NCBI GenBank assembly: GCA_965249555.1
Contig: OZ252243.1
Span: 672,001 to 736,000 of the forward strand
Source: Nitrosopumilus sp.
Lineage (GTDB): Archaea > Thermoproteota > Nitrososphaeria > Nitrososphaerales > Nitrosopumilaceae
Length of the DNA: 64,000 nucleotides
Reading direction: 5' to 3'
Position numbers and translations under genes: made by a program. Each line of letters begins with the position of its first letter. Within the stretch, counting starts at the first letter, position 1. The notes under the pieces are model-generated. The model did not search any database, was not told where the DNA came from, and worked only from the letters and a program-made list of their open reading frames with translations. This document shows positions 32,701 to 61,966 of the stretch, one piece after another.

Positions 32701-35700
32701 CTGTTGGTGTGATTACTGGCGCTGTGGTGTCAAGTGTGATGAGTACTGCTGGTGATGGATCAGATGTGTTGACTCCATCAGATGCTCTTGCAGTAAATGA
32801 GTTGCCACCCTCATCTAGTTCAACTCCTGCAAATGAGAAATTCCCCGAATCATCGGCAGTTGTCGTACCAGCTGGTGTCATCCCATTGAATAGTTGTATA
32901 GTTGCTCCGGCCTCAGTTGAAGTACCATCAATTGTGATTGGTGTAGAGCCAACAGTTGCAGGTGGCGTGGTAATTGCAGGAACTGGTGGCGGTGTGGTAT
33001 CAGTTACTTTGTATGTTCTGGTTTTATCACCAGCCGGGTTTGTACCATCAGTTGAGGAATAAGTGATAGTGTAATCGCCTACTGTGCCAACATCAACAGT
33101 TCCAGATATGGTGATTGGAGAGCCATCATCAGTTGATACTCCATCAAGAAGTACCGGTGCAGGTGAGTCTAGTTCAAGGGTGATCTCTTCTGGAGTTACT
33201 GTGATTACTGGCGGCGTAACATCAGGTCCTACTGTTACAGTTTCAGTGATTGTTCTGCTTTGTTCATTGTTGTCAGTTACGGTGTAAGTTACAGCATATT
33301 CTCCAGAAGCGTTGACATTGACTGTTTTGCCGCCAACCATACCAGGTGCAGTTCCTGAGATATCAAATGCATTGGCAATCGTACCTTGGGCGTATGTTCC
33401 GCCAAATGGCACTGTAGTGGAATAGTCATCTGTGTTACCATCAACGTCAAAGGTTGGCGGTGTGGTATCAGATACGGTAATTACAATTGATTGTTGGTCC
33501 GGTGTGTTGCCTGCCGCATCATCTGGCGCATCATACAATACGGTGTAGACTCCTATACTGCTGGTGTCAGGTGTATCACCAGAGGGTGTTGCCGTTTCAG
33601 AGTAATCTGGGTCATTATCAGTTACGGTGCCGCCTTGTTCTGTGTAGGTGTCAGTTGCAGTCAACTCTATTGTTGTATCAGATCCTGTTGGTGTGATTAC
33701 TGGTTTTTCTGTATCATCAAGAGATGGGTTTTCAGTTGGTGCTGCAGGTGTAGTTACAATCAAATCCTCAGATGAAACGCTTGTCTGGGAAATGTCGTTA
33801 GTTGATGTGGCATAATATGTGTAGGATGTTGCAGGAGTCAGACCAGTTTCAGTGTATGATGTATCGCCGGTAGTTGTTAAGAGGATATCACCTCTATACA
33901 ATTTGTATTCATTGGCACCGTCCACTGCAGTCCATGTAATCTCAATGCTTGTCGGAGTGATTGCTCCTGCTCCAAGTGTAGGAGGTGCAGGTGGAGTCGT
34001 TATGGATTCTCTGCCAATCTCATCACCATCAAATGAGAGTGTGACATCGCCACGATAATTATACCCAACTGGCATCGTAGTAGGAGGTAACTGTACACCT
34101 ACTGCATCTTCTGCAATCTCAACAGTAGTGGTCTGATCAACATCATATCCAATTGTAAAGGTACCAGATGTTAATGGTACAAATGTTGCAGATGCATCAT
34201 CAAAACCTGGTGTGACACTAAAAGAGCCAGGTTCAATTGCAGGAACTGCTGGTGCCTTTGGAGTAGTTACTGTCAAATCATCAGATGGGTGACTTGTCTG
34301 GGAAGCATCGTTAGTTGATGTGGCATGATATGTGTAGGATGATTCAGGAGTCAAGGTCTCATCAGTGTAGGATGTATCGCTGGGAGTTGCTATAGAAATG
34401 TCATCTCTAAACAGCTCGTATCCTGTGGCACCAGGTTGTGCAGTCCATGTAATTACAACACTTGTCGGAGTAACTGCTCCTTGCACAAGTGCAGGTGGTG
34501 CAGGTCCAGTCTTTACAGATACACTGCCAATTATTTCACTATCAAATGAGAGGGTGACAGGGTTGTCATAATTATACCCAACTGGTACTGTAGTAGTTGA
34601 TGGCGTATTTACTGCATCGATGATAACAGAAACAGTCTGATCAGTACCATATCCAATTGTAAAGGTACCGGATTTTAATGGTGTAAAGGATGCAGATGCA
34701 TCATCAAAACCTGGTGTGACACTAAAAGAGTCTAGTTCAATTGCAGGTGCCTTTGGAGTAGTTACTGCTGTAAACACAGGCTCACCAATTATAGAAGAAG
34801 GAAAAAAGGATATACCAACTATGCCGATTCTTTCAGCATTGACTAATCTCTCAAAATGGTTAAAAGCAGGAGTAAAATCAGCAGTGGTAACACCTTGCGA
34901 TAATTGGAAAACAGATACTACTTCATCAACACCATCTTCAGTTATATAAAGTTCATAAGTGCCGTTAGAAGATTCTACATTACTCCAAGTTAATCGAATA
35001 TTACCATTAGGTAATAGTTCAGCTGTTAAAGATGGTAGTGAAGCAAATGATGTTGTTACAGGTGTTGTTATTGTAGGTACTGCTGCAAACACAAGCTCAC
35101 CAATTGTAGAAGAAGAAGGGGATATACCAACTATGCCGATTTTTTCAGCATTATTTACTCGGTCAAAAATAGGAATATCAAGATCCATATCATAGGAAGT
35201 AACGCCTGGCGATAATAGGAAATTAATTAGCGGTGTATCAACACTATCTTCAGTTATATAAAGTCCATAAACATCGTTAGGAGATTCTATATTACTCCAA
35301 GTTAATCTAATATAATTATCAGATAATCTTTCAGCTGTTAAAGATGGTAGTGAAGCAAATGATGTTGTTACAGGTGTTGTTATTGTAGGTACTGCTGCAA
35401 ACACAAGCTCACCAATTATTAGAGTATAAGAAGGGGATATACCAACTATGCCGATTCTTTGAGCATTGATTAATCTATCATAAAAGGGAGAAAGGGGAGT
35501 AACATCAGTAGTGGTAACACCTTGCGATAATATGAAAACAAGTAGTTTTTCATCAACATCATCTTCAGTTATATAAAGTTCATACATGCCGCTAGGAGAT
35601 TTTACGTTACTCCAAGTTAATCGAATATTACCATTAGGTAATAGTTCAGCTGTTAAAGATGGTAGTGAAACAAATGGTGTTGTTATTGTAGGTACTGCTG

Positions 35701-36997
35701 CAAACACAGGCTCACCAATTATAGAAAAAAGAAGGATATCCATACCAACTATGCCGATTCTTTCAGCATTATTTACTCGGTCAAAAATAAGAAGATCGGG
35801 AGTAATATCAAAGGTAGTGGCGCCGGGCGATAATGGGAAATTACCTAGCAATGTATCAACACCATTTTCAGTTATATAAAATGTATAAACATCGTTAGGA
35901 GATTCTACATTGCTCCAAGTTAATCTAATAGAATCGTCAGGTAATCTTTCAGCTGTTAAAGATGGTGGTAATGGAGGGGGTACTGCTGCAAACACAGGCT
36001 CACCAATTATAGAAGAAAGAAGGGACTCTTTACCAACTATGCCGATTCTTTCAGCATTATTTACTCGGTCAAAAATAAGAAGATCGGGAGTAATATCAAA
36101 GGTAGTAACACCAGGTGATAATGGGAAAGAATCTAGGCTTTTATCAACACCATCTTCAGTTATATAAAGTCCATAAACATTGTTAGGAGATTCTACATTG
36201 CTCCAAGTTAATCTAATAGAATCGTCAGGTAATCTTTCAGCTGTTAAAGATGGTAGTGGAACAAATGGTGTTGTTATTGTAGGTACTGCTGCAAACACAG
36301 GCTCACCAATTGTTATAGTAGACTCACTGGTCTCTTTGCCAACTAGGCCGATTCTTTCAGCATTGATTAATCTATCATAAAAGGGAGAAAGGGGAGTAAC
36401 AACAAATGTAGTAGCACCGGACAATAATATGAAATTAGATACTATTTCATCAACACCATCTTCAGTTAGATAAAGTCCATAAACATTGTTAGGAGATTCT
36501 ATATTGCTCCAAGTTAATCTAATAGAATCATCAGGTAATCTTTCAGCTGTTAAAGATGGTGGTGTTGTTGTTACAGGTGTTGCCATTGTAGGTACTGCAG
36601 TAAACACAGGCTCACCAATTATTGTAGAAGAAGAAGTGAGATAACCAACTATGCCGATTCTTTGAGCATTGACTAATCTCTCAAACTGGTTAAAAGCAGG
36701 AGTAAAATCAGTAGTGGTAACACCTTGTGATACTGGAGAAATAGTTACTATTTCATCAACACCATCTTCAGTTATATAAAATGTATAAACATTGTTAGGA
36801 GATTCTACATTACTCCAAGTTAATCGAATAGTACCATTAGGTAATAGTTCAGCTGTTAAAGATGGGTCGGGGTTAGTTTGAGCTTGAGCTTCTGCAACAC
36901 TTGCAAAGGTAAGTGATATGGTAAATAGTGCCACCAATACGAGGCAGAAAAATGGAAACTTGGTTGCTTGCAAAGGCAAGTTACATGACAGAGTCAC
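2714..36997 (-). CDS. Giant secreted surface/adhesin-like protein, 11,427 aa: signal peptide, 7 variable FN3-like domains, FN3/Ig region, long array of DUF5011/HYR-like and Big-like Ig domains, Nitrosopumilus-type C-terminal domain
   Basis: Uninterrupted ORF. Signal peptide TKFPFFCLVLVALFTISLTFASVAEAQ; DTTPPVIT/DTTAPVIT Ig linkers; Thr/Asp-rich. The true start is uncertain (GTG 36997, a TTG 8 codons downstream, or ATG 37019 if the G tract is G11). Confidence 0.9.
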   Translation of the reverse strand: MTLSCNLPLQATKFPFFCLVLVALFTISLTFASVAEAQAQTNPDPSLTAELLPNGTIRLTWSNVESPNNVYTFYITEDGVDEIVTISPVSQGVTTTDFTPAFNQFERLVNAQRIGIVGYLTSSSTIIGEPVFTAVPTMATPVTTTPPSLTAERLPDDSIRLTWSNIESPNNVYGLYLTEDGVDEIVSNFILLSGATTFVVTPLSPFYDRLINAERIGLVGKETSESTITIGEPVFAAVPTITTPFVPLPSLTAERLPDDSIRLTWSNVESPNNVYGLYITEDGVDKSLDSFPLSPGVTTFDITPDLLIFDRVNNAERIGIVGKESLLSSIIGEPVFAAVPPPLPPSLTAERLPDDSIRLTWSNVESPNDVYTFYITENGVDTLLGNFPLSPGATTFDITPDLLIFDRVNNAERIGIVGMDILLFSIIGEPVFAAVPTITTPFVSLPSLTAELLPNGNIRLTWSNVKSPSGMYELYITEDDVDEKLLVFILSQGVTTTDVTPLSPFYDRLINAQRIGIVGISPSYTLIIGELVFAAVPTITTPVTTSFASLPSLTAERLSDNYIRLTWSNIESPNDVYGLYITEDSVDTPLINFLLSPGVTSYDMDLDIPIFDRVNNAEKIGIVGISPSSSTIGELVFAAVPTITTPVTTSFASLPSLTAELLPNGNIRLTWSNVESSNGTYELYITEDGVDEVVSVFQLSQGVTTADFTPAFNHFERLVNAERIGIVGISFFPSSIIGEPVFTAVTTPKAPAIELDSFSVTPGFDDASASFTPLKSGTFTIGYGTDQTVSVIIDAVNTPSTTTVPVGYNYDNPVTLSFDSEIIGSVSVKTGPAPPALVQGAVTPTSVVITWTAQPGATGYELFRDDISIATPSDTSYTDETLTPESSYTYHATSTNDASQTSHPSDDLTVTTPKAPAVPAIEPGSFSVTPGFDDASATFVPLTSGTFTIGYDVDQTTTVEIAEDAVGVQLPPTTMPVGYNYRGDVTLSFDGDEIGRESITTPPAPPTLGAGAITPTSIEITWTAVDGANEYKLYRGDILLTTTGDTSYTETGLTPATSYTYYATSTNDISQTSVSSEDLIVTTPAAPTENPSLDDTEKPVITPTGSDTTIELTATDTYTEQGGTVTDNDPDYSETATPSGDTPDTSSIGVYTVLYDAPDDAAGNTPDQQSIVITVSDTTPPTFDVDGNTDDYSTTVPFGGTYAQGTIANAFDISGTAPGMVGGKTVNVNASGEYAVTYTVTDNNEQSRTITETVTVGPDVTPPVITVTPEEITLELDSPAPVLLDGVSTDDGSPITISGTVDVGTVGDYTITYSSTDGTNPAGDKTRTYKVTDTTPPPVPAITTPPATVGSTPITIDGTSTEAGATIQLFNGMTPAGTTTADDSGNFSFAGVELDEGGNSFTARASDGVNTSDPSPAVLITLDTTAPVITPTGSDTTIELTATDTYTEQGGTVTDNDPAYPGTVAVSGDTPDTSSIGVYTVLYDAPDDAAGNTPDQQSIVITVSDTTPPTFDVDGNTDDYSTTVPFGGTYTQGMIANAFDISGTAPGIVGGKTVNVNASGEYAVTYTVTDNNEQSRTITQTVTVGPDVTPPVITPTGSDTTIELTATDTYTEQGGTVTDNDPDYSETATPSGDTPDTSSIGVYTVLYDAPDDAAGNTPDQQSIVITVSDTTPPTFDVDGNTDDYSTTVPFGGTYAQGTIANAFDISGTAPGMVGGKTVNVNASGEYAVTYTVTDNNEQSRTITETVTVGPDVTPPVITVTPEEITLELDSPAPVLLDGVSTDDGSPITISGTVDVGTVGDYTITYSSTDGTNPAGDKTRTYKVTDTTPPPVPAITTPPATVGSTPITIDGTSTEAGATIQLFNGMTPAGTTTADDSGNFSFAGVELDEGGNSFTARASDGVNTSDPSPAVLITLDTTAPVITPTGSDTTIELTATDTYTEQGGTVTDNDPDYSETATPSGDTPDTSSIGVYTVLYDAPDDAAGNTPDQQSIVITVSDTTPPTFDVDGNTDDYSTTVPFGGTYAQGMIANAFDISGTAPGMVGGKTVNVNASGEYAVTYTVTDNNEQSRTITQTVTVGPDVTAPVITPTGSDTTIELTATDTYTEQGGTVTDNDPDYSETATPSGDTPDTSSIGVYTVLYDAPDDAAGNTPDQQSIVITVSDTTPPTFDVDGNTDDYSTTVPFGGTYAQGTIANAFDISGTAPGMVGGKTVNVNASGEYAVTYTVTDNNEQSRTITETVTVGPDVTPPVITVTPEEITLELDSPAPVLLDGVSTDDGSPITISGTVDVGTVGDYTITYSSTDGTNPAGDKTRTYKVTDTTPPPVPAITTPPATVGSTPITIDGTSTEAGATIQLFNGVTPAGTTTADDSGNFSFAGVELDEGGNSFTARASDGVNTSDPSPAVLITLDTTAPVITPTGSDTTIELTATDTYTEQGGTVTDNDPDYSETATPSGDTPDTSSIGVYTVLYDAPDDAAGNTPDQQSIVITVSDTTPPTFDVDGNTDDYSTTVSFGGTYTQGMIANAFDISGTAPGIVGGKTVNVNASGEYAVTYTVTDNNEQSRTITETVTVGPDVTAPVITPTGSDTTIELTATDTYTEQGGTVTDNDPDYSETATPSGDTPDTSSIGVYTVLYDAPDDAAGNTPDQQSIVITVSDTTPPTFDVDGNTDDYSTTVPFGGTYAQGTIANAFDISGTAPGMVGGKTVNVNASGEYAVTYTVTDNNEQSRTITETVTVGPDVTPPVITVTPEEITLELDSPAPVLLDGVSTDDGSPITISGTVDVGTVGDYTITYSSTDGTNPAGDKTRTYKVTDTTPPPVPAITTPPATVGSTPITIDGTSTEAGATIQLFNGVTPAGTTTADDSGNFSFAGVELDEGGNSFTARASDGVNTSDPSPAVLITLDTTAPVITPTGSDTTIELTATDTYTEQGGTVTDNDPDYSETATPSGDTPDTSSIGVYTVLYDAPDDAAGNTPDQQSIVITVSDTTPPTFDVDGNTDDYSTTVPFGGTYAQGTIANAFDISGIKSSTVGGKTVNVNASGEYAVTYTVTDNNEQSRTITETVTVGPDVTPPVITPTGSDTTIELTATDTYTEQGGTVTDNDPDYSETATPSGDTPDTSSIGVYTVLYDAPDDAAGNTPDQQSIVITVSDTTPPTFDVDGNTDDYSTTVPFGGTYAQGTIANAFDISGTAPGMVGGKTVNVNASGEYAVTYTVTDNNEQSRTITETVTVGPDVTPPVITVTPEEITLELDSPAPVLLDGVSTDDGSPITISGTVDVGTVGDYTITYSSTDGTNPAGDKTRTYKVTDTTPPPVPAITTPPATVGSTPITIDGTSTEAGATIQLFNGVTPAGTTTADDSGNFSFAGVELDEGGNSFTARASDGVNTSDPSPAVLITLDTTAPVITPTGSDTTIELTATDTYTEQGGTVTDNDPDYSETATPSGDTPDTSSIGVYTVLYDAPDDAAGNTPDQQSIVITVSDTTPPTFDVDGNTDDYSTTVPFGGTYAQGTIANAFDISGTAPGMVGGKTVNVNASGEYAVTYTVTDNNEQSRTITETVTVGPDVTAPVITPTGSDTTIELTATDTYTEQGGTVTDNDPDYSETATPSGDTPDTSSIGVYTVLYDAPDDAAGNTPDQQSIVITVSDTTPPTFDVDGNTDDYSTTVPFGGTYTQGTIANASDISGIKSSTVGGKTVNVNASGEYAVTYTVTDNNEQSRTITETVTVGPDVTPPVITPTGSDTTIELTATDTYTEQGGTVTDNDPDYSETATPSGDTPDTSSIGVYTVLYDAPDDAAGNTPDQQSIVITVSDTTPPTFDVDGNTDDYSTTVPFGGTYAQGTIANAFDISGTAPGMVGGKTVNVNASGEYAVTYTVTDNNEQSRTITQTVTVGPDVTPPVITVTPEEITLELDSPAPVLLDGVSTDDGSPITISGTVDVGTVGDYTITYSSTDGTNPAGDKTRTYKVTDTTPPPVPAITTPPATVGSTPITIDGTSTEAGATIQLFNGVTPAGTTTADDSGNFSFAGVELDEGGNSFTARATDGVNTSDPSPAVLITLDTIPPVITPTGSDTTIELTATDTYTEQGGTVTDNDPDYSETATPSGDTPDTSSIGVYTVLYDAPDDAAGNTPDQQSIVITVSDTTPPTFDVDGNTDDYSTTVPFGGTYTQGTIANASDISGIKSSTVGGKTVNVNASGEYAVTYTVTDNNEQSRTITETVTVGPDVTPPVITPTGSDTTIELTATDTYTEQGGTVTDNDPDYSETATPSGDTPDTSSIGVYTVLYDAPDDAAGNTPDQQSIVITVSDTTPPTFDVDGNTDDYSTTVPFGGTYAQGTIANAFDISGTAPGMVGGKTVNVNASGEYAVTYTVTDNNEQSRTITETVTVGPDVTPPVITVTPEEITLELDSPAPVLLDGVSTDDGSPITISGTVDVGTVGDYTITYSSTDGTNPAGDKTRTYKVTDTTPPPVPAITTPPATVGSTPITIDGTSTEAGATIQLFNGVTPAGTTTADDSGNFSFAGVELDEGGNSFTARATDGVNTSDPSPAVLITLDTIPPVITPTGSDTTIELTATDTYTEQGGTVTDNDPDYSETATPSGDTPDTSSIGVYTVLYDAPDDAAGNTPDQQSIVITVSDTTPPTFDVDGNTDDYSTTVPFGGTYTQGTIANASDISGIKSSTVGGKTVNVNASGEYAVTYTVTDNNEQSRTITETVTVGPDVTPPVITPTGSDTTIELTATDTYTEQGGTVTDNDPDYSETATPSGDTPDTSSIGVYTVLYDAPDDAAGNTPDQQSIVITVSDTTPPTFDVDGNTDDYSTTVPFGGTYTQGTIANAFDISGTAPGMVGGKTVNVNASGEYAVTYTVTDNNEQSRTITETVTVGPDVTPPVITVTPEEITLELDSPAPVLLDGVSTDDGSPITISGTVDVGTVGDYTITYSSTDGTNPAGDKTRTYKVTDTTPPPVPAITTPPATVGSTPITIDGTSTEAGATIQLFNGVTPAGTTTADDSGNFSFAGVELDEGGNSFTARATDGVNTSDPSPAVLITLDTIPPVITPTGSDTTIELTATDTYTEQGGTVTDNDPDYSETATPSGDTPDTSSIGVYTVLYDAPDDAAGNTPDQQSIVITVSDTTPPTFDVDGNTDDYSTTVPFGGTYTQGTIANASDISGIKSSTVGGKTVNVNASGEYAVTYTVTDNNEQSRTITETVTVGPDVTPPVITPTGSDTTIELTATDTYTEQGGTVTDNDPDYSETATPSGDTPDTSSIGVYTVLYDAPDDAAGNTPDQQSIVITVSDTTPPTFDVDGNTDDYSTTVPFGGTYTQGTIANAFDISGTAPGMVGGKTVNVNASGEYAVTYTVTDNNEQSRTITETVTVGPDVTPPVITVTPEEITLELDSPAPVLLDGVSTDDGSPITISGTVDVGTVGDYTITYSSTDGTNPAGDKTRTYKVTDTTPPPVPAITTPPATVGSTPITIDGTSTEAGATIQLFNGVTPAGTTTADDSGNFSFAGVELDEGGNSFTARATDGVNTSDPSPAVLITLDTIPPVITPTGSDTTIELTATDTYTEQGGTVTDNDPDYSETATPSGDTPDTSSIGVYTVLYDAPDDAAGNTPDQQSIVITVSDTTPPTFDVDGNTDDYSTTVPFGGTYTQGTIANASDISGIKSSTVGGKTVNVNASGEYAVTYTVTDNNEQSRTITETVTVGPDVTPPVITPTGSDTTIELTATDTYTEQGGTVTDNDPDYSETATPSGDTPDTSSIGVYTVLYDAPDDAAGNTPDQQSIVITVSDTTPPTFDVDGNTDDYSTTVPFGGTYAQGTIANAFDISGTAPGMVGGKTVNVNASGEYAVTYTVTDNNEQSRTITETVTVGPDVTPPVITVTPEEITLELDSPAPVLLDGVSTDDGSPITISGTVDVGTVGDYTITYSSTDGTNPAGDKTRTYKVTDTTPPPVPAITTPPATVGSTPITIDGTSTEAGATIQLFNGVTPAGTTTADDSGNFSFAGVELDEGGNSFTARATDGVNTSDPSPAVLITLDTIPPVITPTGSDTTIELTATDTYTEQGGTVTDNDPDYSETATPSGDTPDTSSIGVYTVLYDAPDDAAGNTPDQQSIVITVSDTTPPTFDVDGNTDDYSTTVPFGGTYTQGTIANASDISGIKSSTVGGKTVNVNASGEYAVTYTVTDNNEQSRTITETVTVGPDVTPPVITPTGSDTTIELTATDTYTEQGGTVTDNDPDYSETATPSGDTPDTSSIGVYTVLYDAPDDAAGNTPDQQSIVITVSDTTPPTFDVDGNTDDYSTTVPFGGTYAQGTIANAFDISGTAPGMVGGKTVNVNASGEYAVTYTVTDNNEQSRTITETVTVGPDVTPPVITVTPEEITLELDSPAPVLLDGVSTDDGSPITISGTVDVGTVGDYTITYSSTDGTNPAGDKTRTYKVTDTTPPPVPAITTPPATVGSTPITIDGTSTEAGATIQLFNGVTPAGTTTADDSGNFSFAGVELDEGGNSFTARATDGVNTSDPSPAVLITLDTIPPVITPTGSDTTIELTATDTYTEQGGTVTDNDPDYSETATPSGDTPDTSSIGVYTVLYDAPDDAAGNTPDQQSIVITVSDTTPPTFDVDGNTDDYSTTVPFGGTYTQGTIANASDISGIKSSTVGGKTVNVNASGEYAVTYTVTDNNEQSRTITETVTVGPDVTPPVITPTGSDTTIELTATDTYTEQGGTVTDNDPDYSETATPSGDTPDTSSIGVYTVLYDAPDDAAGNTPDQQSIVITVSDTTPPTFDVDGNTDDYSTTVPFGGTYTQGTIANAFDISGTAPGMVGGKTVNVNASGEYAVTYTVTDNNEQSRTITETVTVGPDVTPPVITVTPEEITLELDSPAPVLLDGVSTDDGSPITISGTVDVGTVGDYTITYSSTDGTNPAGDKTRTYKVTDTTPPPVPAITTPPATVGSTPITIDGTSTEAGATIQLFNGVTPAGTTTADDSGNFSFAGVELDEGGNSFTARATDGVNTSDPSPAVLITLDTIPPVITPTGSDTTIELTATDTYTEQGGTVTDNDPDYSETATPSGDTPDTSSIGVYTVLYDAPDDAAGNTPDQQSIVITVSDTTPPTFDVDGNTDDYSTTVPFGGTYTQGTIANASDISGIKSSTVGGKTVNVNASGEYAVTYTVTDNNEQSRTITETVTVGPDVTPPVITPTGSDTTIELTATDTYTEQGGTVTDNDPDYSETATPSGDTPDTSSIGVYTVLYDAPDDAAGNTPDQQSIVITVSDTTPPTFDVDGNTDDYSTTVPFGGTYAQGTIANAFDISGTAPGMVGGKTVNVNASGEYAVTYTVTDNNEQSRTITETVTVGPDVTPPVITVTPEEITLELDSPAPVLLDGVSTDDGSPITISGTVDVGTVGDYTITYSSTDGTNPAGDKTRTYKVTDTTPPPVPAITTPPATVGSTPITIDGTSTEAGATIQLFNGVTPAGTTTADDSGNFSFAGVELDEGGNSFTARATDGVNTSDPSPAVLITLDTIPPVITPTGSDTTIELTATDTYTEQGGTVTDNDPDYSETATPSGDTPDTSSIGVYTVLYDAPDDAAGNTPDQQSIVITVSDTTPPTFDVDGNTDDYSTTVPFGGTYAPGVINNQSDISGIKSSTVGGKTVNVNASGEYAVTYTVTDNNEQSRTITETVTVGPDVTPPVITPTGSDTTIELTATDTYTEQGGTVTDNDPDYSETATPSGDTPDTSSIGVYTVLYDAPDDAAGNTPDQQSIVITVSDTTPPTFDVDGNTDDYSTTVPFGGTYAQGTIANAFDISGTAPGMVGGKTVNVNASGEYAVTYTVTDNNEQSRTITETVTVGPDVTPPVITVTPEEITLELDSPAPVLLDGVSTDDGSPITISGTVDVGTVGDYTITYSSTDGTNPAGDKTRTYKVTDTTPPPVPAITTPPATVGSTPITIDGTSTEAGATIQLFNGVTPAGTTTADDSGNFSFAGVELDEGGNSFTARATDGVNTSDPSPAVLITLDTIPPVITPTGSDTTIELTATDTYTEQGGTVTDNDPDYSETATPSGDTPDTSSIGVYTVLYDAPDDAAGNTPDQQSIVITVSDTTPPTFDVDGNTDDYSTTVPFGGTYTQGTIANASDISGIKSSTVGGKTVNVNASGEYAVTYTVTDNNEQSRTITETVTVGPDVTPPVITPTGSDTTIELTATDTYTEQGGTVTDNDPDYSETATPSGDTPDTSSIGVYTVLYDAPDDAAGNTPDQQSIVITVSDTTPPTFDVDGNTDDYSTTVPFGGTYTQGTIANAFDISGTAPGMVGGKTVNVNASGEYAVTYTVTDNNEQSRTITETVTVGPDVTPPVITVTPEEITLELDSPAPVLLDGVSTDDGSPITISGTVDVGTVGDYTITYSSTDGTNPAGDKTRTYKVTDTTPPPVPAITTPPATVGSTPITIDGTSTEAGATIQLFNGVTPAGTTTADDSGNFSFAGVELDEGGNSFTARATDGVNTSDPSPAVLITLDTIPPVITPTGSDTTIELTATDTYTEQGGTVTDNDPDYSETATPSGDTPDTSSIGVYTVLYDAPDDAAGNTPDQQSIVITVSDTTPPTFDVDGNTDDYSTTVPFGGTYTPGVINNQSDISGIKSSTVGGKTVNVNASGEYAVTYTVTDNNEQSRTITETVTVGPDVTPPVITPTGSDTTIELTATDTYTEQGGTVTDNDPDYSETATPSGDTPDTSSIGVYTVLYDAPDDAAGNTPDQQSIVITVSDTTPPTFDVDGNTDDYSTTVPFGGTYAQGTIANAFDISGTAPGMVGGKTVNVNASGEYAVTYTVTDNNEQSRTITQTVTVGPDVTPPVITVTPEEITLELDSPAPVLLDGVSTDDGSPITISGTVDVGTVGDYTITYSSTDGTNPAGDKTRTYKVTDTTPPPVPAITTPPATVGSTPITIDGTSTEAGATIQLFNGVTPAGTTTADDSGNFSFAGVELDEGGNSFTARATDGVNTSDPSPAVLITLDTIPPVITPTGSDTTIELTATDTYTEQGGTVTDNDPDYSETATPSGDTPDTSSIGVYTVLYDAPDDAAGNTPDQQSIVITVSDTTPPTFDVDGNTDDYSTTVPFGGTYTQGTIANASDISGIKSSTVGGKTVNVNASGEYAVTYTVTDNNEQSRTITETVTVGPDVTPPVITPTGSDTTIELTATDTYTEQGGTVTDNDPDYSETATPSGDTPDTSSIGVYTVLYDAPDDAAGNTPDQQSIVITVSDTTPPTFDVDGNTDDYSTTVPFGGTYAQGTIANAFDISGTAPGMVGGKTVNVNASGEYAVTYTVTDNNEQSRTITETVTVGPDVTPPVITVTPEEITLELDSPAPVLLDGVSTDDGSPITISGTVDVGTVGDYTITYSSTDGTNPAGDKTRTYKVTDTTPPPVPAITTPPATVGSTPITIDGTSTEAGATIQLFNGVTPAGTTTADDSGNFSFAGVELDEGGNSFTARASDGVNTSDPSPAVLITLDTTAPVITPTGSDTTIELTATDTYTEQGGTVTDNDPAYPGTVAVSGDTPDTSSIGVYTVLYDAPDDAAGNTPDQQSIVITVSDTTPPTFDVDGNTDDYSTTVPFGGPYTQGVINNQSDISGIKSSTVGGKTVNVNASGEYAVTYTVTDNNEQSRTITETVTVGPDVTPPVITPTGSDTTIELTATDTYTEQGGTVTDNDPDYSETATPSGDTPDTSSIGVYTVLYDAPDDAAGNTPDQQSIVITVSDTTPPTFDVDGNTDDYSTTVPFGGPYTPGVINNQSDISGIKSSTVGDETVNVNASGEYAVTYTVTDNNGQVATITETVTVESDVTAPPVPAITTPPATVGASPITIDGGSTEAGATITLFNGATPAGTVTADGSGSFSFAGVVLDEGANSFTARASDGVNTSGPSPAIVITLDTIAPEAPIITTSPVTVGSSSFTIEGTAEAGTTVALLKGATSTGDTVAADSGSFSFTVTLTEGENSFTATASDGPNTSGASPAVLITLDTETPPVPAITTPSETVSLSSFTIEGTAEAGTTVELFNEGSTVDTITADGDGNFSFTVTLTDGENSFTATATDGPNTSASSSPVLITLDTIAPVITVDKDSFSVELGETYTAFTYSANDNTDGDITDNVVVGDTVDTSVANTYTVTFDVDDAAGNHAVTVTRTVTVTPDATVPTITVNEDSLSVELGGTYELFTFTANDNTDGIITGEVTVAGYPADTDTAGTYDVTFDVDDAVGNHAVTVARTVTVTDTTAPVITPAGSTQTIELTQTNTYTEQGAIVTDNDPVYTGTVAVTGATPDTRVVKEYTVLYNAPDDAAGNTPDEKSIVITVVDTTAPEAPEITTSPATVNTPSFTIEGTAEAGTTVALLKGATSTGDTVAADGDGNFSFTGVALDEGENSFTATASDGPNTSASSSPVLITLDTTAPEAPEITTSPATVNTPSITIEGTAEAGTTVELFKGGTSTGDTVTADSGSFSFTVTLTDGENSFTATASDGPNTSDASSPVLITLDTIPPEAPIITTPPATVNTPSFTIEGTAEAGTTVALLKGATSTGDTVTADSGSFSFTVTLTKGANSFTVTASDGPNTSASSSPILITLDTTAPAVPAITTPPATVNTPSITIDGTAEAGTTVELFRGGTTVDTVTADSGSFSFTVTLTDGENSFTATASDGPNTSAASPAIVITLDTIAPVITVDKDSFSVELGETYTAFTYSANDNTDGDITDNVVVGDTVDTSVDNTYNVTFDVDDAAGNHAVTVTRTVTVTADTTVPSITVNEESFSIELGETYTPFTFTATDNTDGVITDDVSVGGDTVDTSEVGTYDVTFDVDDAAGNPAVTVTRTVTVTADTTAPTLPDTEKPVITPAGSSEIIELTQTNTYTIPDATVTDNNQAYSGTVTVTGDTPDTSSIGEYTVLYDAPDDAAGNTPDQKSITITVVDTTAPTFDVDGHTVDYSTAVPFDGTYTPGVIANESDISGIASSLVGGETVNANTSRDYVVTYTVTDSNGQVATITETVTVESDTTAPPVPAIATSPAIVSSSPITIEGGSTEAGATIELFNGATPAGTVIADGSGNFSFTEVALDEGENSFTATASDGVNTSAASPSIVITLDTTAVGGTASVPSGTETPKKKGGDSNEWKTKPTFGKHWNNQAVQLVDDGFVFNGMPLTITNNWHTDFNMTSSIIGDNNTVHIKGYATNGLKSVSLSLGVPEVGLKTNAESHIIVNVNSNYTSPAGYDIADIVHEQKEGLVNQNMTGATISKVKCTSSDTAERCFDVTISFVIMAPLSHEVLAINAVDKQRYSTTTYINEGVEFVGEALLAAATHELKQKHGNQNPFETISLTQQDRRYQVWEDQYGYIWSQNDYGTWLQITRPDIQQRDDSPTSVMTRIHSNFANLVIDEQDRATLIFDSKAIQGTLDESFSYDMPLRLDRVSDPALLESLSIQEMLAREMLCDCMIYDDSDFSWND
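7630..33705 (-). repeat. Intragenic tandem array of 53 modules of 492 bp: 36 'AB' and 17 'CD' modules, mostly a 1476-bp (AB-AB-CD) period, with one extra AB near 26.1-26.6 kb
   Basis: Antisense shadow ORFs recur at exact 492/984/1476 offsets (7903, 8395, 9379...; 8556, 10032...24792, then 26760). Copies differ by only a few SNPs. Confidence 0.95.
34765..36865 (-). repeat. Seven ~95-100 aa FN3-like repeats with conserved framework and variable segments
   Basis: PSLTAE(L/R)LP...IRLTWSN(V/I)ES...YITEDGVD-[variable]-NA(E/Q)RIGIVG-[variable]-IGE(P/L)VF(A/T)AV occurs seven times. Confidence 0.9.
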
Positions 36998-37008
36998 CCC
37001 CCCCCCCC
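36997..37008 (-). promoter_or_regulatory. G12 homopolymer between an upstream ATG (37019) and the giant ORF; candidate phase-variation tract
   Basis: 12 consecutive C on the + strand in an otherwise AT-rich region. AT-rich TATA-like sequence lies at 37041-37060. Confidence 0.5.
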
Positions 37009-37075
37009 GGGCGGGGCATTAACGCAGTGAATAATATTTTTCATATAATATTATAAATAATTTAATTTATATAGT

Positions 37076-37348
37076 TTAAAATATCTGTCTGTGTTGTCTT
37101 TTTTGCTTTTTCCATTCAATGGAATTTTTTGATGGCGGAGAGCGTGCATTCTCATAATATGACAGTCTTTTTTGCAGTTCCTTGTTTGATTCTATGAGAT
37201 TCTCTATGATTAATTTTAGTTGTTTTATCTCTGCTTGTAGCTGTATGATGATTTTCTCATGACCACAACCTGACATGTTTTATATGATGATTTAGTTGAT
37301 CTTAGATCTTTTTGTGTAATGATATTGATTTGTGCGTGAAGGTTGATA
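37076..37348 (-). mobile_element. Truncated IS66-family element: left end plus first 66 codons of the transposase; its terminal IR is split by the IS110
   Basis: MSGCGHEKIIIQLQ...YYENARSPPSKNS is near-identical to the N-terminus of 62044..63393. The upstream sequence matches 61967-62043. The missing terminal CATAC reappears at 38678-38682. Confidence 0.9.
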
Positions 37349-37355
37349 ACTATAT

Positions 37356-38471
37356 GTGAATACAAAAAGAAGGAATTCAGATAGCATAGGAAATGAATCT
37401 AATTCCAAGATTCGTAATTCATCGTATTCCAAGAAAAGTCCAAAGAAACAGATTAGGGGAAAAAAAGACAAGGGCATGTATGTTGGCATTGACTTGCACA
37501 AGAAATTTCTTCAAGTGGCAACAATGGATAATGACGGAAAGATATTACAAAACATAAAAGTTGAGAACACTCATGAATCAATCAGGAAACATTTTACAGA
37601 CATACCGATTCATGCAAACATTGTCATGGAATCATCATCAGTTTGGTATAACACGTATAGATTTCTTACAGATGAATTGGGATACAAAAACGTAATACTG
37701 TCAAACCCGTATCTTACAAAGGCAATAGCTGCATCAAAAAAGAAGACAGACAAGATTGATGCCAGGATACTGGCAGATCTTTTGCGCGGGGGATACATTG
37801 CAACATGTCATGTTCCAAACAAAAAGATAGTAAAACATCGCCAGCTGGTAAGATACAGAAAAAAACTCATTCAGTGGAGAACATCTCTCAAAAATTCTGT
37901 CCATGGAATTTTGTTGCAGGAGGGAATCAAGATACCAGGAGTCACGTTCACTGTAACATACAACAGAAGACTCACCTCCCTAGGTGACTATCGCATAGAC
38001 GGATTCGTACGACAGATAGACTATCTTAATCTGCAAATTGAAGATATTAATTCAAGAGTGTATGCTGCTGTAAATGCCAGTCCTGATGCCATGATAATAA
38101 AATCAATACCCGGAATTGGTGACTACTCGTCACTAGTTATCGCATCAGAAATTGCAAATATTGACAGATTCAACAACTCTCACAAGTTATGCGCATATGC
38201 AGGAGTCGTGCCATCAGTCAGAAACTCTGCAGACACGATACATCATGGCCGTATAACCAAAAGAGGAAGCATGACACTACGATGGGTCCTTATCCAATGC
38301 GTCCATTCTCATGCAATACATGCCAAGAACAGTGACATTACAAAATTTTACAATCGCATTAAAAAGAAGAGAGGCTCATCAAAGGCCGCAGTTGCCGCAT
38401 CATCAAAGATCCTGCGAGTGATTTACTGGATGCTAAAAGAGAGGAGAGAATTTGTACAGAATTACAGTTAG
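37356..38471 (+). CDS. IS110-family DEDD transposase/recombinase
   Basis: MYVGIDLHK, VMESS, KKTDKIDA (DEDD RuvC-like domain); SIPGIG...EIANIDRF...LCAYAGVVPSVRNSA (Transposase_20 domain with Ser). Confidence 0.95.
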   Translation: MNTKRRNSDSIGNESNSKIRNSSYSKKSPKKQIRGKKDKGMYVGIDLHKKFLQVATMDNDGKILQNIKVENTHESIRKHFTDIPIHANIVMESSSVWYNTYRFLTDELGYKNVILSNPYLTKAIAASKKKTDKIDARILADLLRGGYIATCHVPNKKIVKHRQLVRYRKKLIQWRTSLKNSVHGILLQEGIKIPGVTFTVTYNRRLTSLGDYRIDGFVRQIDYLNLQIEDINSRVYAAVNASPDAMIIKSIPGIGDYSSLVIASEIANIDRFNNSHKLCAYAGVVPSVRNSADTIHHGRITKRGSMTLRWVLIQCVHSHAIHAKNSDITKFYNRIKKKRGSSKAAVAASSKILRVIYWMLKERREFVQNYS

Positions 38472-39119: not shown

Positions 39120-39920
39120 TTAACCAATACTAGACCTTATTTCTTGTATTTTTTCTTCTTGAAATTCGGGATGAATTATTGGGATTTTATTCATATTGAT
39201 ATACTCAATTGACTGTTTTGCGGTATTAGATAATTCATTCTCAGTTAGTTTGATGGTGCTAAATATCAATGGCTTGTTTCTTTTGTATTTTTCTGATTCT
39301 ATAAGAGCCTTCATTTCATATAAAAATAGTTTAAAACTTTCAAATAAACTACTTTCAGAAAAATTGAATATATCTATGGTATTTACCAATTCATCGTCAT
39401 TCATAAAAGCAAAATCACGTATTTGTGGAATTCCAGAAATTGTGTCTATTTCAAACTTTTCTTCACAAGTTTTTTCAGGAAATTTTAATTTTTGAATATG
39501 TTGTTTTAGTTTGGTTCGAATTTTTGTAACAGAGATGAATTCTTCCAAAATTTGTTTTTTATCAGGAACACTTATCATTTTATCAAATACTTGTTGCAAT
39601 GTAATGTCAATTTCTTTTGTATTTACTTTGATTGGTTCAGAATAAAATATACTGCCATGAAAAGAATCATGAAGTTGCCATAAATAATCGATGGACTCCA
39701 CTTGTAAGACTGGCTTATAATTCTCAAATGATCTTTCCAATCCATGGATTTTTTCAACTCCTAACCTTTTAAAAAATTCATCAAAATTTGCCATGTATTT
39801 ATTATGAATTTTTTTATTTTGTTTATCAAGTAATGATATTCCGATGTTTACAGGTTCAAATCGCACTATATCTGGAACATACTTTATTACTGAAAATTCG
39901 CACTCTGTCATATTTATCAC
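39120..39920 (-). CDS. DUF3037-domain protein
   Basis: FSVIKYVPDIVRFEPVNIGI matches the DUF3037 N-terminal motif; overlaps the kinase stop codon. Confidence 0.8.
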   Translation of the reverse strand: MINMTECEFSVIKYVPDIVRFEPVNIGISLLDKQNKKIHNKYMANFDEFFKRLGVEKIHGLERSFENYKPVLQVESIDYLWQLHDSFHGSIFYSEPIKVNTKEIDITLQQVFDKMISVPDKKQILEEFISVTKIRTKLKQHIQKLKFPEKTCEEKFEIDTISGIPQIRDFAFMNDDELVNTIDIFNFSESSLFESFKLFLYEMKALIESEKYKRNKPLIFSTIKLTENELSNTAKQSIEYINMNKIPIIHPEFQEEKIQEIRSSIG

Positions 39921-40735
39921 GGTAATGATGGTAGTTTGTCTATATTAAGTCGTATGTGTTCATTTGCCATATCTTTTGTAAATTTTGTTAATAAAATCTC
40001 CACATTATTGATGTACTCTTCGTAACCGTTTCCCCAACTTGTAGGAATTTTTTTAATAATGTCTGGAATTATGTTTGCTAAATCAACAGTTCTATTAATT
40101 CCACGATCAAATAATCTAAATTTATCAATATGATCTACAACAAAATGCATTTGATGCAACGTTCGTTTCATTGCTCGCAATCCTCGAATGTCTGTTTTTA
40201 TATTGGGATTTCTCTGAAAAGCTAAATCATGATCAAACAAATAATAATCAACTTTATCAGTTAATATCTCATTCTCTAATAAACAAATATTATTATCATG
40301 TCTATCAAAATTCTCAATGTATTTATCAAAAATAATAAAATCAGGAATCTGTCTAAAATTTCCTATCATGTCTTTATCAATCATCTTTCCTTGTATTTTA
40401 TAGGAATTCACAGTTTCAAAAGGTTGAAGATAAACTTGAGCAAAGTGCTCACCAGAACAAAATTCAGATAATTTTTTATTACTGTCAATTAATTCTTGAG
40501 AAACATTTGCAATGACAGGTTCAAACATTGGTAATTCTAATTCTAAACCTATAAGATTACAAACTAATTCATTTATTCCAATTCTTGCATCATTATATTT
40601 ATTGAATTTTACCTGGTAAGATTCATTATCATCTCCTATCATCACTGTAGGGTGATTAAGACTGCCATACTGTTCGTTGTCTATAACCCACGACATATCC
40701 ACATGTTTAATTTCATAAGAATCGATAAAATTCAT
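39917..40735 (-). CDS. HipA-like (HipA_2) Ser/Thr kinase
   Basis: YQVK, INELVCNLIG, FDKYIENFDRHDNNI, LFDHDLAF. Start set at ATG 40735; the ORF track extends to 40834. Confidence 0.85.
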   Translation of the reverse strand: MNFIDSYEIKHVDMSWVIDNEQYGSLNHPTVMIGDDNESYQVKFNKYNDARIGINELVCNLIGLELELPMFEPVIANVSQELIDSNKKLSEFCSGEHFAQVYLQPFETVNSYKIQGKMIDKDMIGNFRQIPDFIIFDKYIENFDRHDNNICLLENEILTDKVDYYLFDHDLAFQRNPNIKTDIRGLRAMKRTLHQMHFVVDHIDKFRLFDRGINRTVDLANIIPDIIKKIPTSWGNGYEEYINNVEILLTKFTKDMANEHIRLNIDKLPSLP

Positions 40736-40836
40736 GTTATGATACGAATTTAAAAAATACAACAATATTAAATTTTGTTGGTTTTTTATCGAAAAAAGAT
40801 CGATTGGGTTTATTAAAAAATATTGAATTTGCAAAG

Positions 40837-41652
40837 TTACTGAAAGCCTTTTCTTGCCAAATAGTCTGCAACTATCTTTTGTGCATACTCTGCGGGCTCC
40901 ATGTCATTCTCTCTGGATATCTTGGATAACCCTTTGGCATGACTCTTGGATATCTTTAGTGACAGATTCTGTCTTGCCCTGAAAGAGTTTGCCAGCTTTT
41001 GAATATCAGAGTGCTCTGCATTTCCCAATTTTTCCAATGCATCAATGTATCTCTTTTTTTGGAAGGAATCATATTTTTTTATTCTCTCAACTATCTCTAT
41101 TGCCTTGTATGGGGCGGTGACTACCTTGCAGATTCTGATTGCATCCCGTTTGGATAGGACCTGGGGCACCATATCTCGTACCATATCTGGTACCACGGCA
41201 AATCCGAGATACTCCCTAAATGTTGCAGGTTTTATTCCCAATATCTGTGCAGCCTCGCTCTTTCCCATCTTTTCTGCCAAGAACTGGCACGATGCTACCA
41301 TCTCATTTGTAGTCATGTCCTTTCTGTGCATGTTCTCAATTATTGATGCCGCCTTTGCATCCTGTATGTTGCAGGAGCTGTTCTTGGATAGTATCAGTAC
41401 TGGAATGGTCTTTGAGCCAAGTCTTTTTAGCGCTGCAAGTCTTCTCTGGCCTGACATTAGCAGGTAGGAGTTGTTCCCATTCCTCTGAACCATTGGCGGG
41501 TTTTGCAGTCCTTCCTGTGCTATGGAGCGTGCAAGGGAGTCAATGTCGGTATTATCCAATGTCCTTGCCTGTGCCTCCTTCCATATTGTGATTGTATCGA
41601 TTGGAACTTCCTTTAACGAATAGGATATCGGGTTTTCTTTTATTTTCTGCAA
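40837..41652 (-). CDS. ParB/Srx N-terminal domain protein with HTH and short C-terminal DNA-binding-like tail
   Basis: LARSIAQEGLQNPPMV, LMSGQRRLAALKRLG, IIENMHRKDM. Confidence 0.85.
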   Translation of the reverse strand: MQKIKENPISYSLKEVPIDTITIWKEAQARTLDNTDIDSLARSIAQEGLQNPPMVQRNGNNSYLLMSGQRRLAALKRLGSKTIPVLILSKNSSCNIQDAKAASIIENMHRKDMTTNEMVASCQFLAEKMGKSEAAQILGIKPATFREYLGFAVVPDMVRDMVPQVLSKRDAIRICKVVTAPYKAIEIVERIKKYDSFQKKRYIDALEKLGNAEHSDIQKLANSFRARQNLSLKISKSHAKGLSKISRENDMEPAEYAQKIVADYLARKGFQ

Positions 41653-57405: not shown

Positions 57406-58413
57406 ACTATATGTGAATACAAAAAGAAGGAATTCAGATAGCATAAAAAATGAACCCAGATCCAGGAGTCGTAATCCATCGTATTCCAAGAAAAGTCCAA
57501 AGAAACAGATTAGGGCAAAAAAAGACAAGGGCATGTATGTTGACATTGACTTGCACAAGGAATTTCTTCTAGCAACAATGGATAATGACAGAAAGATATT
57601 ACAAAACATAAAAGTTGAGAACACTCATAAATCAATCAAGAAACATTTTACAGACATACCAATATTGTCATGGAATCATCATCAGTCTGGTATGGCACGT
57701 ATAGATTTCTTACAGATGAATTAGGATACAAAAATGTTACACTCTCAAACCCGTATCTTACAAAGGCAATAGCTGCATCAAAAAAAACAGGCAAGATTGA
57801 TGCTATGATACTAGCCAGATCTTTTGCGCGGGGGATACATTGCAACATGCCATATTCCAAACAAAAAGATAGTAAAACATCGCCAGCTGGTAAGATACAG
57901 AAAAAAACTCGTTCAGTTTAGAATCTCTCTCAAAAATTCTGTTCATGGAATTTTGTTACAAGAGGGAATCAAGATACCCGGAGTCACGTTCACTGTAACA
58001 TACAACAGAAAACTCATGTTACTAGATGACTATCGCATAGATGGATTTGTACGACAGATAGACTATCCTAATCTGCAAATTGCAGAGATTAATTCAAGAG
58101 TGTATGCTGCTGTAAAGACCAGTCCTGATGCCATGATAATAAAATCAATGCCAGGAATTGGTGACTACTCGTCACTAGTTATCGCATCAGAAATTGCAAA
58201 TATTAACAGATTCAACAACTCTCACAAGTTATGCGCATATGCCGGAGTCGTGCTATCAGTTAGAAATTCTGCAGACACAATACACCATGGCAGTATAACC
58301 AAAAGGGGAAGCATGACACTACGATGGGTTCTTATCCAATGTGTTCATTCTCATGCAATACATGCCAAGAACAGTGACATTACAAAATTTTACAATCGCA
58401 TTAAAAAGAAGAG
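57404..58413 (+). pseudogene. Degenerate IS110 copy: multiple frameshifts, 3' end and non-coding end lost
   Basis: Three ORF fragments (57413, 57670, 57824) are collinear with 37356..38471; left end TA-ACTATATGTGAAT. Confidence 0.9.
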
Positions 58414-60881: not shown

Positions 60882-61780
60882 AGATAATTGATAAAATTCA
60901 GGGAAGTGAAATTAATGATGGATTTATTGGTGGGATGCCTGGAGATGAGTTGACAGCCATATACAAGAACAATACAGGTACAGCACGTCTTACATTCTTT
61001 ATTGCAAATTTTGGCGCAACTATAGAACTTGACCAAAAAATATACAGGCCTACAGATAAAGTATACATTACAATTGTCGCACCTGATTTTAATTTTAATT
61101 CTAATATGATTGACAAAATAGGAATAAATCCTGAAAGCATCATAAATATTTGTACTCGTAAAGACAAGATGGAGAGATATCAACTGGTTGAAACAGGTGT
61201 AGATACTGGAATTTTTACAGGTGAAATTCAATTGGGTAGGAACGTAGGCGAACAGATATCAAAAACAAACGGCATTGGACCTACTGATGGAGAATTAATG
61301 TGTGAAGATGATGATTTCATAGAGGTTTCATTTAATTTGTTTGGAGATGAGGAGGTTTTAGGAAGAGCTAAGATAAAATCTGTTGTGAATAAACCATGAC
61401 TTTGTAAAACCGCATCAAGGATTGAATAGAAAACACCTGCAGAAGCAACAAACATTGATCTTGATTTGGGTACTGACAAATATTTGGATTTGGTCAAGCC
61501 GGAACTAAAGTCGATTTTGTAAACAATTTGGGAAAGAGAATCAAGAAAATTACAATAGTCAATGAGGAGGATGCCATCAAAGTTACACCTACAGGTTGGA
61601 TTGATAAGAAAATATGGCAAGAGATAAATGATATTTTGGGACTTTGCAAGTTTTGTTGGTTGTCAAATGGCAAGGACAGTTGCAGGATTAGGATGAACTC
61701 TTAGATCAATTCTTGATTTTTTACTATGTGTTTGATCAGCGTAGTATATGCTACTTGTATTGATTTGCCTATTCCACCTT

Positions 61781-61936: not shown

Positions 61937-61966
61937 TAATGATCATGTTTATAAATTCATGAAAAA

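Follow-up and report, generated by a model that had tools for sequence, protein, structure and literature searches.

Mosaic FN3-like domains with variable segments at the N terminus of a giant surface protein of an ammonia-oxidising archaeon

The giant open frame and its N-terminal array

The window analysed here is a stretch of 64,000 nucleotides (nt) from Nitrosopumilus sp. (GenBank assembly GCA_965249555.1, contig OZ252243.1, positions 672,001 to 736,000), and a single stop-free frame of 11,427 amino acids (aa) runs through it on the minus strand (2714-36997; coordinates are those of the window unless a contig is named). The frame begins with a signal peptide and encodes a giant secreted surface protein, at whose N terminus stand seven tandem copies of a fibronectin type III (FN3)-like domain, the presumed tip domain, which is the subject of this work. 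The contig of 2.23 Mb is the whole genome (34.4% G+C; completeness of 99.97%; labelled G000:C1 in coordinates below), and because it contains an archaeal amoA gene (PF12942, E-value of 1.5e-117), the host is an ammonia-oxidising archaeon. The gene takes ~34 kb, and open frames longer than 5,000 aa number at least six in the genome; a survey of UniProt found no more than seven proteins of that size in any archaeal proteome (PMC11573180).

The hydrophobic signal peptide (residues ~14-40) ends in AEAQAQ, and the seven tip copies, units of ~100 residues, come directly after it (aa 45-754; 34736-36865, minus strand). We number them r1 (aa 45-146; 36560-36865), r2 (aa 147-248; 36254-36559), r3 (aa 249-344; 35966-36253), r4 (aa 345-445; 35663-35965), r5 (aa 446-550; 35348-35662), r6 (aa 551-654; 35036-35347), and r7 (aa 655-754; 34736-35035), all on the minus strand. 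Tandem Repeats Finder reports 6.9 copies with a period of 306 at 34758-36865 (78% matches; score of 2026).

The array is followed by an unnamed module present twice and then by a canonical fn3 domain (aa 755-1085; 33743-34735, minus strand; PF00041 at 3e-10, best stretch 835-910). Next comes the stalk (7632-33703, minus strand), with ~17.7 units of 1476 nt, each made of three 164-aa immunoglobulin (Ig)-like subunits. The stalk had been called near-clonal from the sequence alone, and this is borne out: at the true period of 1476 nt, identity is 0.965 overall and 0.985 to 0.998 in most 1-kb bins. A single 1-kb bin, near 25.6 kb, falls to 0.84, and units one to five are offset by a subunit relative to the remaining ones. 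Adjacent 164-aa subunits are only ~56% identical in DNA, and subunits three apart are 96 to 99% identical. The remaining parts are further Ig-like domains and a C-terminal domain of 338 aa (2717-3730, minus strand).

Fold, mosaicism, and replacement excess of the N-terminal FN3-like domains

Copy r4 was modelled with AlphaFold2 from an alignment of 19 sequences, seven from the array and 12 from paralogous copies that this genome has in other giant frames, at a mean predicted local distance difference test score (pLDDT) of 93.3 and a predicted template-modelling score (pTM) of 0.82. The model has seven strands in the order A-B-C-C'-E-F-G and one short helix (A, 2-7; B, 13-18; C, 26-33; C', 36-44; E, 51-54; helix, 61-65; F, 69-76; G, 81-90), which is the arrangement of an FN3 domain. 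Nearly all of the top 50 rows returned by VIA-align are FN3 domains (Z of 6.7 to 8.3); the best match, 7jgu_A, has a Z of 8.3 and a root mean square deviation of 2.7 over 80 aligned residues, a middling score by the note of the tool. Foldseek with the same model returned no match at an E-value of ≤0.001 (the top one was FN3tt, at 5.5e-3 and a TM score of 0.53), and hence the assignment to FN3 rests on VIA-align. Among the Atlas features, FN3 clusters appear at 0.89 for the tip domain. FN3 domains have a conserved tryptophan in strand B and aromatic residues in strand C; W17, Y27, and Y30 are invariant in the seven copies, and W17 is so in all 19 copies of this genome. The tip domain also has a conserved NA(E/D)RIG motif on the helix of its EF connection.

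The FN3-like fold proposed by the sequence-only reading is thus upheld by the r4 model and by VIA-align. The curated families do not capture it: in Pfam, the single copies r1 and r5 had no fn3-family match at an E-value of ≤0.1, fn3_SORL1 sums to 58.7 bits across 1300 aa with no individual stretch that passes, and NCBIfam has no family for the domain; precomputed Pfam assignments for relatives are PF25814 and PF00041. Because single copies fail the Pfam fn3 models, the domain belongs to a divergent FN3-like subfamily and is not a clean PF00041 member. As an FN3 variant it is compact, has a confident model and naturally diverse loops, and falls outside the curated families.

Across the seven copies, 37 of the 106 aligned protein columns are invariant, and columns average 73% identity in protein and 83% in DNA. 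Copies in the array are on average 66% identical to each other, neighbours being 58 to 82% identical, with the adjacent copies r3 and r4 as the closest pair (82%). Much of the variation lies in three segments, which we locate by their minus-strand positions in r4: V1 (residues 38-47; 35825-35854), comprising strand C' and the start of the C'E loop; V2 (residues 52-61; 35783-35812), comprising strand E and the EF loop, a block common to non-neighbouring copies; and V3 (residues 75-82; 35720-35743), comprising the end of F, the FG turn, and the start of G, which is pyrimidine rich and prone to insertions and deletions (indels). All of the variable strings quoted in the sequence-only reading are present in the minus-strand translation, one set at alignment columns 38-45 (V1) and the other at columns 75-82 (V3) of r1 to r7, as are the strings of the block said to be shuffled, FTPAFN in r1 and r7, TPLSPFY in r2 and r5, and TPDLLIF in r3 and r4.

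The columns of V1 have two to six residue states, and the highly variable columns 39, 41, 42, and 44 alternate with the conservative hydrophobic columns 40, 43, and 45; in strand E, the variable columns 52 and 54 alternate with the conservative hydrophobic columns 51 and 53. Taken with FN3 topology, this alternation suggests that the variable side chains of C' and E point outward. The BC (columns 23-28) and AB (columns 9-12) regions are moderately variable too. In FN3 domains, as known from monobody work, the BC, C'E, and FG loops stand at the N-terminal pole and the AB and EF loops at the opposite one. In the coding strand, pyrimidines make up 80% of DNA columns 226-240 (V3) and 82% of columns 166-180 (V2), compared with 47% in the framework and a fraction of 0.58 in V1. 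The pyrimidine tract and the length differences claimed for the second variable loop (V3) are real. The many T/C changes claimed with them hold only in part: only 6 of the 19 polymorphic V3 columns are pure C/T, and 13 have transversions or several states.

The copies of the array are recombinant mosaics. Their nearest neighbours switch along the unit, from r1, r5, and r7 against r2, r3, r4, and r6 at nt 1-60, to the pairs r1 and r7 (2 differences), r2 and r5 (4 differences), and r3 and r4 (no differences) at nt 151-200, and then to r2 with r4 and r5 with r6 (no differences in either pair) at nt 251-300. A test modelled on the pairwise homoplasy index (PHI) used 74 informative sites; its value was 0.393, the permutations averaged 0.446 (standard deviation of 0.012), none of the 2000 came as low, and 43% of the pairs among these sites are incompatible. 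A run test of the GENECONV type found shared tracts in 7 of the 21 copy pairs at a P of ≤0.002, including columns 150-223 in r3 and r4, 160-195 in r2 and r5, 260-312 in r2 and r4, and 260-318 in r5 and r6. V2 is the only segment common between copies and is identical in r3 and r4. V1 and V3 are unique to each copy and have therefore diverged by mutation, not by shuffling. The segmental gene conversion proposed from the sequence alone accordingly holds for the mosaics and for V2, and does not extend to V1 and V3.

Replacement changes exceed silent ones in the V segments, in line with the positive selection that had been invoked for them, with a ratio of replacement to silent rates (omega) of 2.3 to 3.9 in columns that were chosen post hoc by amino-acid variability. 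Pooled pairwise Nei-Gojobori estimates are 0.89 for the framework and 2.42, 2.48, and 2.31 for V1, V2, and V3. A tree-free count of events per column gave ~1.0 for the framework, 1.5 for V1 (P = 0.24), 3.5 for V2 (P = 0.044), 4.0 for V3 (P = 0.023), and 2.46 for all V segments together (P = 0.003). With the maximum likelihood (ML) codon model GY+F1X4 in IQ-TREE, omega was 1.21 for the framework (P = 0.61), 3.30 for V1 (P = 0.011), 2.32 for V2 (P = 0.20), 8.95 for V3 (P = 0.0017), 3.31 for V1 and V2 together (P = 0.001), and 3.86 for all three (P = 3e-5). As a control, the stalk repeats of the same gene have an omega of 0.33, computed from the 12 of 17 units that are in register, the 5 out-of-register units having been dropped. 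Silent events per silent site are 0.30 in V2, 0.40 in V3, and 0.26 in the framework, whereas replacement events in V2 and V3 are 4 to 6 times those of the framework. Because the silent rates of V2 and V3 are near that of the framework, neither a plain mutation hotspot nor a merely older divergence predicts the pattern. We consider diversifying selection on the V segments likely from these codon comparisons, although not proven.

Fixed frameworks with hypervariable segments also have the look of a programmed system, either a diversity-generating retroelement (DGR) or the conversion from silent cassettes known for pilins (pilE/pilS) and VlsE. That look is all that speaks for such a system here. 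Reverse transcriptase (PF00078) had no match in the 99.97%-complete genome, while the same search was positive in 3 of 14 control genomes. A blastn search of the array against the genome found no template repeat or donor copy: of 22 high-scoring segment pairs, the 8 outside the array had 72 to 84% identity over 44 to 114 nt and lay in paralogs. A short-word search with the 21 V segments likewise revealed no donor cassette, since only 5 of its 53 hits were outside the array and these were chance matches of 16 to 18 nt, and an adenine-specific pattern was not seen. In the contigs of three deep sequencing runs (X1 to X3), there was no sequence variant at ≥10% and no joint inside 34736-36865; these runs come from one study and two samples with word depths in the thousands. 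Contigs lose rare variants, and the runs that carry the array best may be those of the source culture. In a second study, run X4 (depth of ~2) covers 34403-35636 only, leaves 35716-37200 uncovered, and is identical except for one alternative contig near 34731-34745. No RNA run was listed among the sequencing runs that carry the array. A search for strain variants among homologous proteins returned one match at 35% identity ('longer') and two at 32 to 34% ('near'), and a protein-pattern scan of metagenome contigs gave 200 pattern matches, none of them confirmed, with no match for a framework DNA pattern; the collections searched thus contain no strain variant of the array. A DGR was rejected because the genome has neither reverse transcriptase nor template repeat, and silent-cassette antigenic variation because there is no donor outside the array. 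An antibody-like mechanism, as suggested from the sequence alone, is thus not supported, and programmed diversification is close to refuted.

The gene family and its poly-G leaders

With a profile of the tip domain, 24 copies come to light in this genome, spread over nine giant open frames, and at an E-value of ≤1e-5 it has no match in the 200 other genomes examined from the taxonomic family. A narrower profile applied to 40 relatives found the domain in the own genome only (1 of 41), and pattern scans of the relatives' contigs gave 40 matches for the seven-copy alignment and 48 for the C-terminal domain, with none confirmed in either case. In an exhaustive protein library, the tip profile matched 1232 proteins at an E-value of ≤0.001 and 17 at ≤1e-30. 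Many of the weaker matches cover only the N-terminal half of the profile and probably reflect generic FN3 similarity. The best ones are metagenome proteins with 3 to 16 full tip copies directly after a signal peptide; P0002, P0003, P0004, and P0006 among them carry the same C-terminal domain also. Tip copies within these relatives are on average 26 to 41% identical, compared with 66% in the window array. The copies in the window are far more alike, which makes the array uncommonly young for an architecture that is itself older.

The C-terminal 338 aa recur in ten open frames of this genome at 95 to 98% identity, and the ten family proteins range from 1,579 to 11,434 aa. Across the taxonomic family, the domain is present in 60 of 201 genomes (a tally that includes one weak match, in genome G133) and 14 of 27 genera, in open frames of up to 25,697 aa. 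Its model (pLDDT of 71.6) is beta rich with a helical tail; a fold search with this model gave only generic two-Ig matches at a TM score of ~0.2, the domain has no Pfam or NCBIfam family, and the Atlas gave nothing usable for it. The sharing of this domain suggests that it is the anchor and that the N-terminal array is the distal tip. In the open-access library searched we did not find a paper on giant surface proteins of ammonia-oxidising archaea with the tip domain.

One paralog (G000:C1:2026317-2029136) is an open frame of 940 aa with two near-identical units of 924 nt. Between the units, 105 codons of the tip-type domain differ at only three, 396, 397, and 399, all of which are replacements and lie in the FG hairpin; differences resume at codons 422-425, where the duplicated unit ends. 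The three clustered replacements within four codons look like one event or like selection.

The giant gene has a homopolymer of 12 G residues (G12; C12 on the plus strand) in its 5' coding leader (36997-37008, minus strand), which is a candidate slippage switch. An upstream ATG (37042-37044, minus strand), preceded by an A/T-rich TATA-like sequence, is the likely true start, and a conserved 'ttttataa' ~30 nt 5' of the ATG in six paralogs may mark a promoter there. The frame of this ATG reads MKNIIHCVNAPPGGGG, followed by TGA; G13 or G10 would join the ATG to the long frame. With G12 the ATG is out of frame, and therefore the consensus gene reads as off, provided that translation does not begin at an internal GTG or TTG. 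The contigs of the three deep runs have G12 without gaps, and contigs drop rare length variants. Runs of G or C of at least 9 nt number 10 in the whole genome against ~0.6 expected, and 7 of the 10 lie within 42 nt of the 5' end of family open frames of at least 900 aa. These seven poly-G runs have 10 to 12 nt, stand within the signal-peptide leaders of giant genes, and are located at 36997-37008 of the window and at 46418, 499852, 1798981, 1833927, 2133085, and 2178472 of G000:C1. Where paralogs have the leader MNKMLFNALVGGG, a tract of G11 keeps the frame (3 genes), and tracts of G10 and G12 lose it (2 genes). The family thus has a frame-deciding tract in the 5' coding region and paralogs that carry this tract above chance, which are two of the marks of a contingency family. 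In the 6,348-aa paralog (5' end at G000:C1:46300-46500), the leader is present twice. The first copy has G11; in the second, the run is interrupted (GGGTGGAGGGG) and in frame with the signal peptide, possibly a locked-on version.

An IS110-family transposase gene (37356-38471, plus strand) lies divergently upstream of the giant gene, and the read depth rises from 37126. This multi-copy end is ~100 nt from the ATG of the giant gene and may affect the promoter. A transposase cluster at 57824-63393 (plus strand; IS110 fragment, DDE_Tnp_1, and IS66) places the giant gene in an island rich in mobile elements. Between them, three adjacent or overlapping genes at 39120-41652 (minus strand) encode a DUF3037 protein, a HipA_2-like kinase, and a ParB_N-domain protein; they may form a module for defence or of the toxin-antitoxin type. 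At 45732-52854 (minus strand), a 1,723-aa protein with Peripla_BP_6/ANF_receptor and sCache_2 domains adjoins a 654-aa SBP_bac_3 protein, and both resemble large extracellular sensors. Rfam and tRNA scans of the window gave no matches.

Explanations, parallels, and meaning

We lean, by a modest margin over doubt, to the view that a giant adhesin-like protein faces its ligands with this N-terminal region, and that within a contingency-type gene family its domain cores are homogenised and its exposed segments diversified by selection. The array would probably be the end of the fibre most distant from the cell, and its seven copies would have arisen by recent duplication of an FN3-like domain restricted to its lineage. 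Strands A, B, C, F, and G and the 'NAERIG' helix region could be kept near-identical by unequal crossing-over and short gene conversion, and the same ordinary intragenic recombination would move whole blocks (V2) between non-neighbouring copies. The outward residues of the edge strands C' and E and of the FG hairpin appear to gain replacements at a higher rate than silent changes; the most likely cause is that selection, by an agent that we can only presume, favours binding surfaces that differ or change, and slippage in the (TCT/CTT)-type pyrimidine tract may contribute in V3. Variation at the population level would more likely come from the gene family, with ten paralogs of which most carry a poly-G tract that may act as an on/off switch. 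What survives of the earlier picture of binding domains diversified by conversion and positive selection is therefore the mosaicism and the replacement excess; a dedicated diversifying machine was not found.

Several points weigh against this reading, and many of them would fit a neutral or relaxed divergence, in which the copies are young, the tolerant C'-E region and FG hairpin drift, and conversion resets the rest. A gene that is mostly switched off would make such drift more likely, and the G12 leader does read as off. The whole-domain test is weak (ML omega of 1.32, P = 0.15; event count on unpicked columns, P = 0.045), V2 alone is not significant by ML nor V1 alone by counts (P of 0.20 and 0.24), and the ML test assumes a single tree, an assumption that recombination violates. 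The framework omega of ~1.0 to 1.2 suggests a generally weak constraint on the array. The V columns are also variable and indel prone in 54 copies from 7 other proteins (Spearman coefficient of 0.38, P = 2.5e-4), and since the same columns vary family-wide, relaxed constraint explains much of the pattern. Moreover, the V3 residues are mostly hydrophobic (L, F, S, and P), which is unusual for a binding loop, the variable positions lie by FN3 topology at both poles and along the C'-E edge, and the array is one sequence in the three deep runs. Finally, omega is biased upward because the V columns were picked by amino-acid variability. We corrected for the picking by simulating an omega of 1 on the observed column totals 5000 times and taking the best three blocks each time; this null had a median of 1.12 and a 99th percentile of 2.20, and the observed value of 2.32 was reached in only 0.6% of the simulations (P = 0.006). 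Drift also predicts an omega near 1, not one of 2.3 to 3.9; V1 and V2 together, where indel noise is slight, retain an omega of 3.31 (P = 0.001), V2 and V3 show no rise in silent rate, and the stalk has an omega of 0.33. On balance, neutral divergence is an alternative with an appreciable but minor chance of being correct.

We think it improbable that a local mutational mechanism accounts for the pattern, that is, that the pyrimidine tracts under V2 and V3 (0.82 and 0.80) are hotspots of slippage, indels, and multi-nucleotide changes on which no functional selection acts. V3 does differ in length between copies, and the edit distance falls below the codon-alignment distance by 25% in V3 and by 6% in V1 and V2, which means that slippage indels in the pyrimidine tract mimic replacements and inflate the omega of V3, a further point against selection; the three changes of the 940-aa paralog, within 11 nt, resemble one event as well. 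However, V1 has a pyrimidine fraction of only 0.58 and yet an omega of 3.3, pure C/T variation is confined to 6 of 19 polymorphic V3 columns, and a hotspot should lift silent changes, which are not lifted in V2 and V3. Near-identical neighbouring beta-sandwich domains tend to co-aggregate or to swap strands, a principle from work on titin-type tandem domains. Selection could therefore make adjacent copies differ in their hairpin and in edge strands C' and E as a negative design against misfolding and not as a binding surface. The centring of the variation on two edge strands and a hairpin would agree with this, as would the uniqueness of V1 and V3 in every copy and the stalk, where adjacent subunits are ~56% and subunits three apart 96 to 99% identical in DNA. 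However, the adjacent copies r3 and r4 are the most alike (82%) and have an identical V2, and the neighbour identity of 58 to 82% is far above the level said to avoid co-aggregation; we consider this the less probable of the two. Relaxed constraint, mutational bias, and selection against misfolding are live rivals of selection for binding.

The protein resembles several known systems and is not a member of the Opa-type, FN3-scaffold, VARTIG, or giant-repeat-adhesin systems. Like the Opa proteins of Neisseria, it belongs to a surface multigene family in which a simple repeat in the region coding for the signal peptide sets the frame of each copy, and it combines a conserved framework with hypervariable exposed segments and mosaics from recombination between copies. 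However, Opa proteins are small beta-barrels in the outer membrane of bacterial pathogens and use a CTCTT repeat, whereas here we have giant fibres, a free-living archaeon, and poly-G; the variable segments compared here are those of tandem domains in one protein, and switching is a candidate only. With the FN3 binding scaffolds (monobodies, Tencon, and FN3tt; PDB 7jgu, 3tes, and 9y5y) the tip domain shares the seven-strand sandwich, in which variation naturally falls on the BC, C'E/DE, and FG loops of the N-terminal pole, most of all on FG. The similarity is moderate (Z of 8.3, TM score of 0.53, 15% identity), and the tip domain differs in its EF helix with NA(E/D)RIG and in varying also along strands C' and E and at the opposite pole.

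VARTIG of the Thermococcales is a large archaeal Ig-domain protein with a hypervariable Ig region made by recombination, for which a role in conflict or self-nonself recognition was proposed, and the abstract of that paper states that Ig variability on this scale was not found in archaea beyond the Thermococcales (PMC8416519). In VARTIG it is the C-terminal Ig domain that varies, from genome to genome, and the partner genes downstream are variable as well (PMC8416519). In contrast, the window protein varies between N-terminal tandem copies within one gene, and its C-terminal domain is the most conserved part; the gene downstream of its stop is an open reading frame of 178 aa without a family, and no module of the VARTIG kind is seen. 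The adhesin by which Marinomonas binds ice, with its mass of 1.5 MDa, also projects a ligand-binding end region on a near-identical Ig-like stalk, and adhesins of this type have RTX features, type I secretion, calcium-stiffened repeats, and a C-terminal binding region (PMC5550230, PMC4083281). The window protein instead has a Sec-type signal peptide and an N-terminal array. DGR targets are similar in combining a fixed scaffold with localised hypervariability in a surface protein, and differ in their reverse transcriptase, template repeat, and adenine-specific pattern, all of which are missing here.

Ammonia-oxidising archaea are among the most abundant microbes of oceans and soils, and their cell-surface biology and virus defence are poorly known. 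It is conceivable, although we hold it for now to be doubtful, that these free-living archaea run a contingency-gene system, like those of bacterial pathogens, in which giant surface fibres are switched individually by poly-G slippage in the signal-peptide leader, gene conversion keeps their ends uniform, and selection diversifies the distal FN3-like tips, of which this seven-domain array would be the youngest. The diversifying force would then plausibly be viruses or the attachment of cells to each other or to particles, and the outcome would be a strategy resembling antigenic variation in an archaeon that has no host immune system to evade. If the tips diversify and the tracts switch, this would indicate strong, fluctuating selection on the cell surface by viruses, grazers, partners, or particles, for which the gene family offers a testable handle. 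It would also extend the concept of the contingency locus from host-associated bacteria to free-living archaea.

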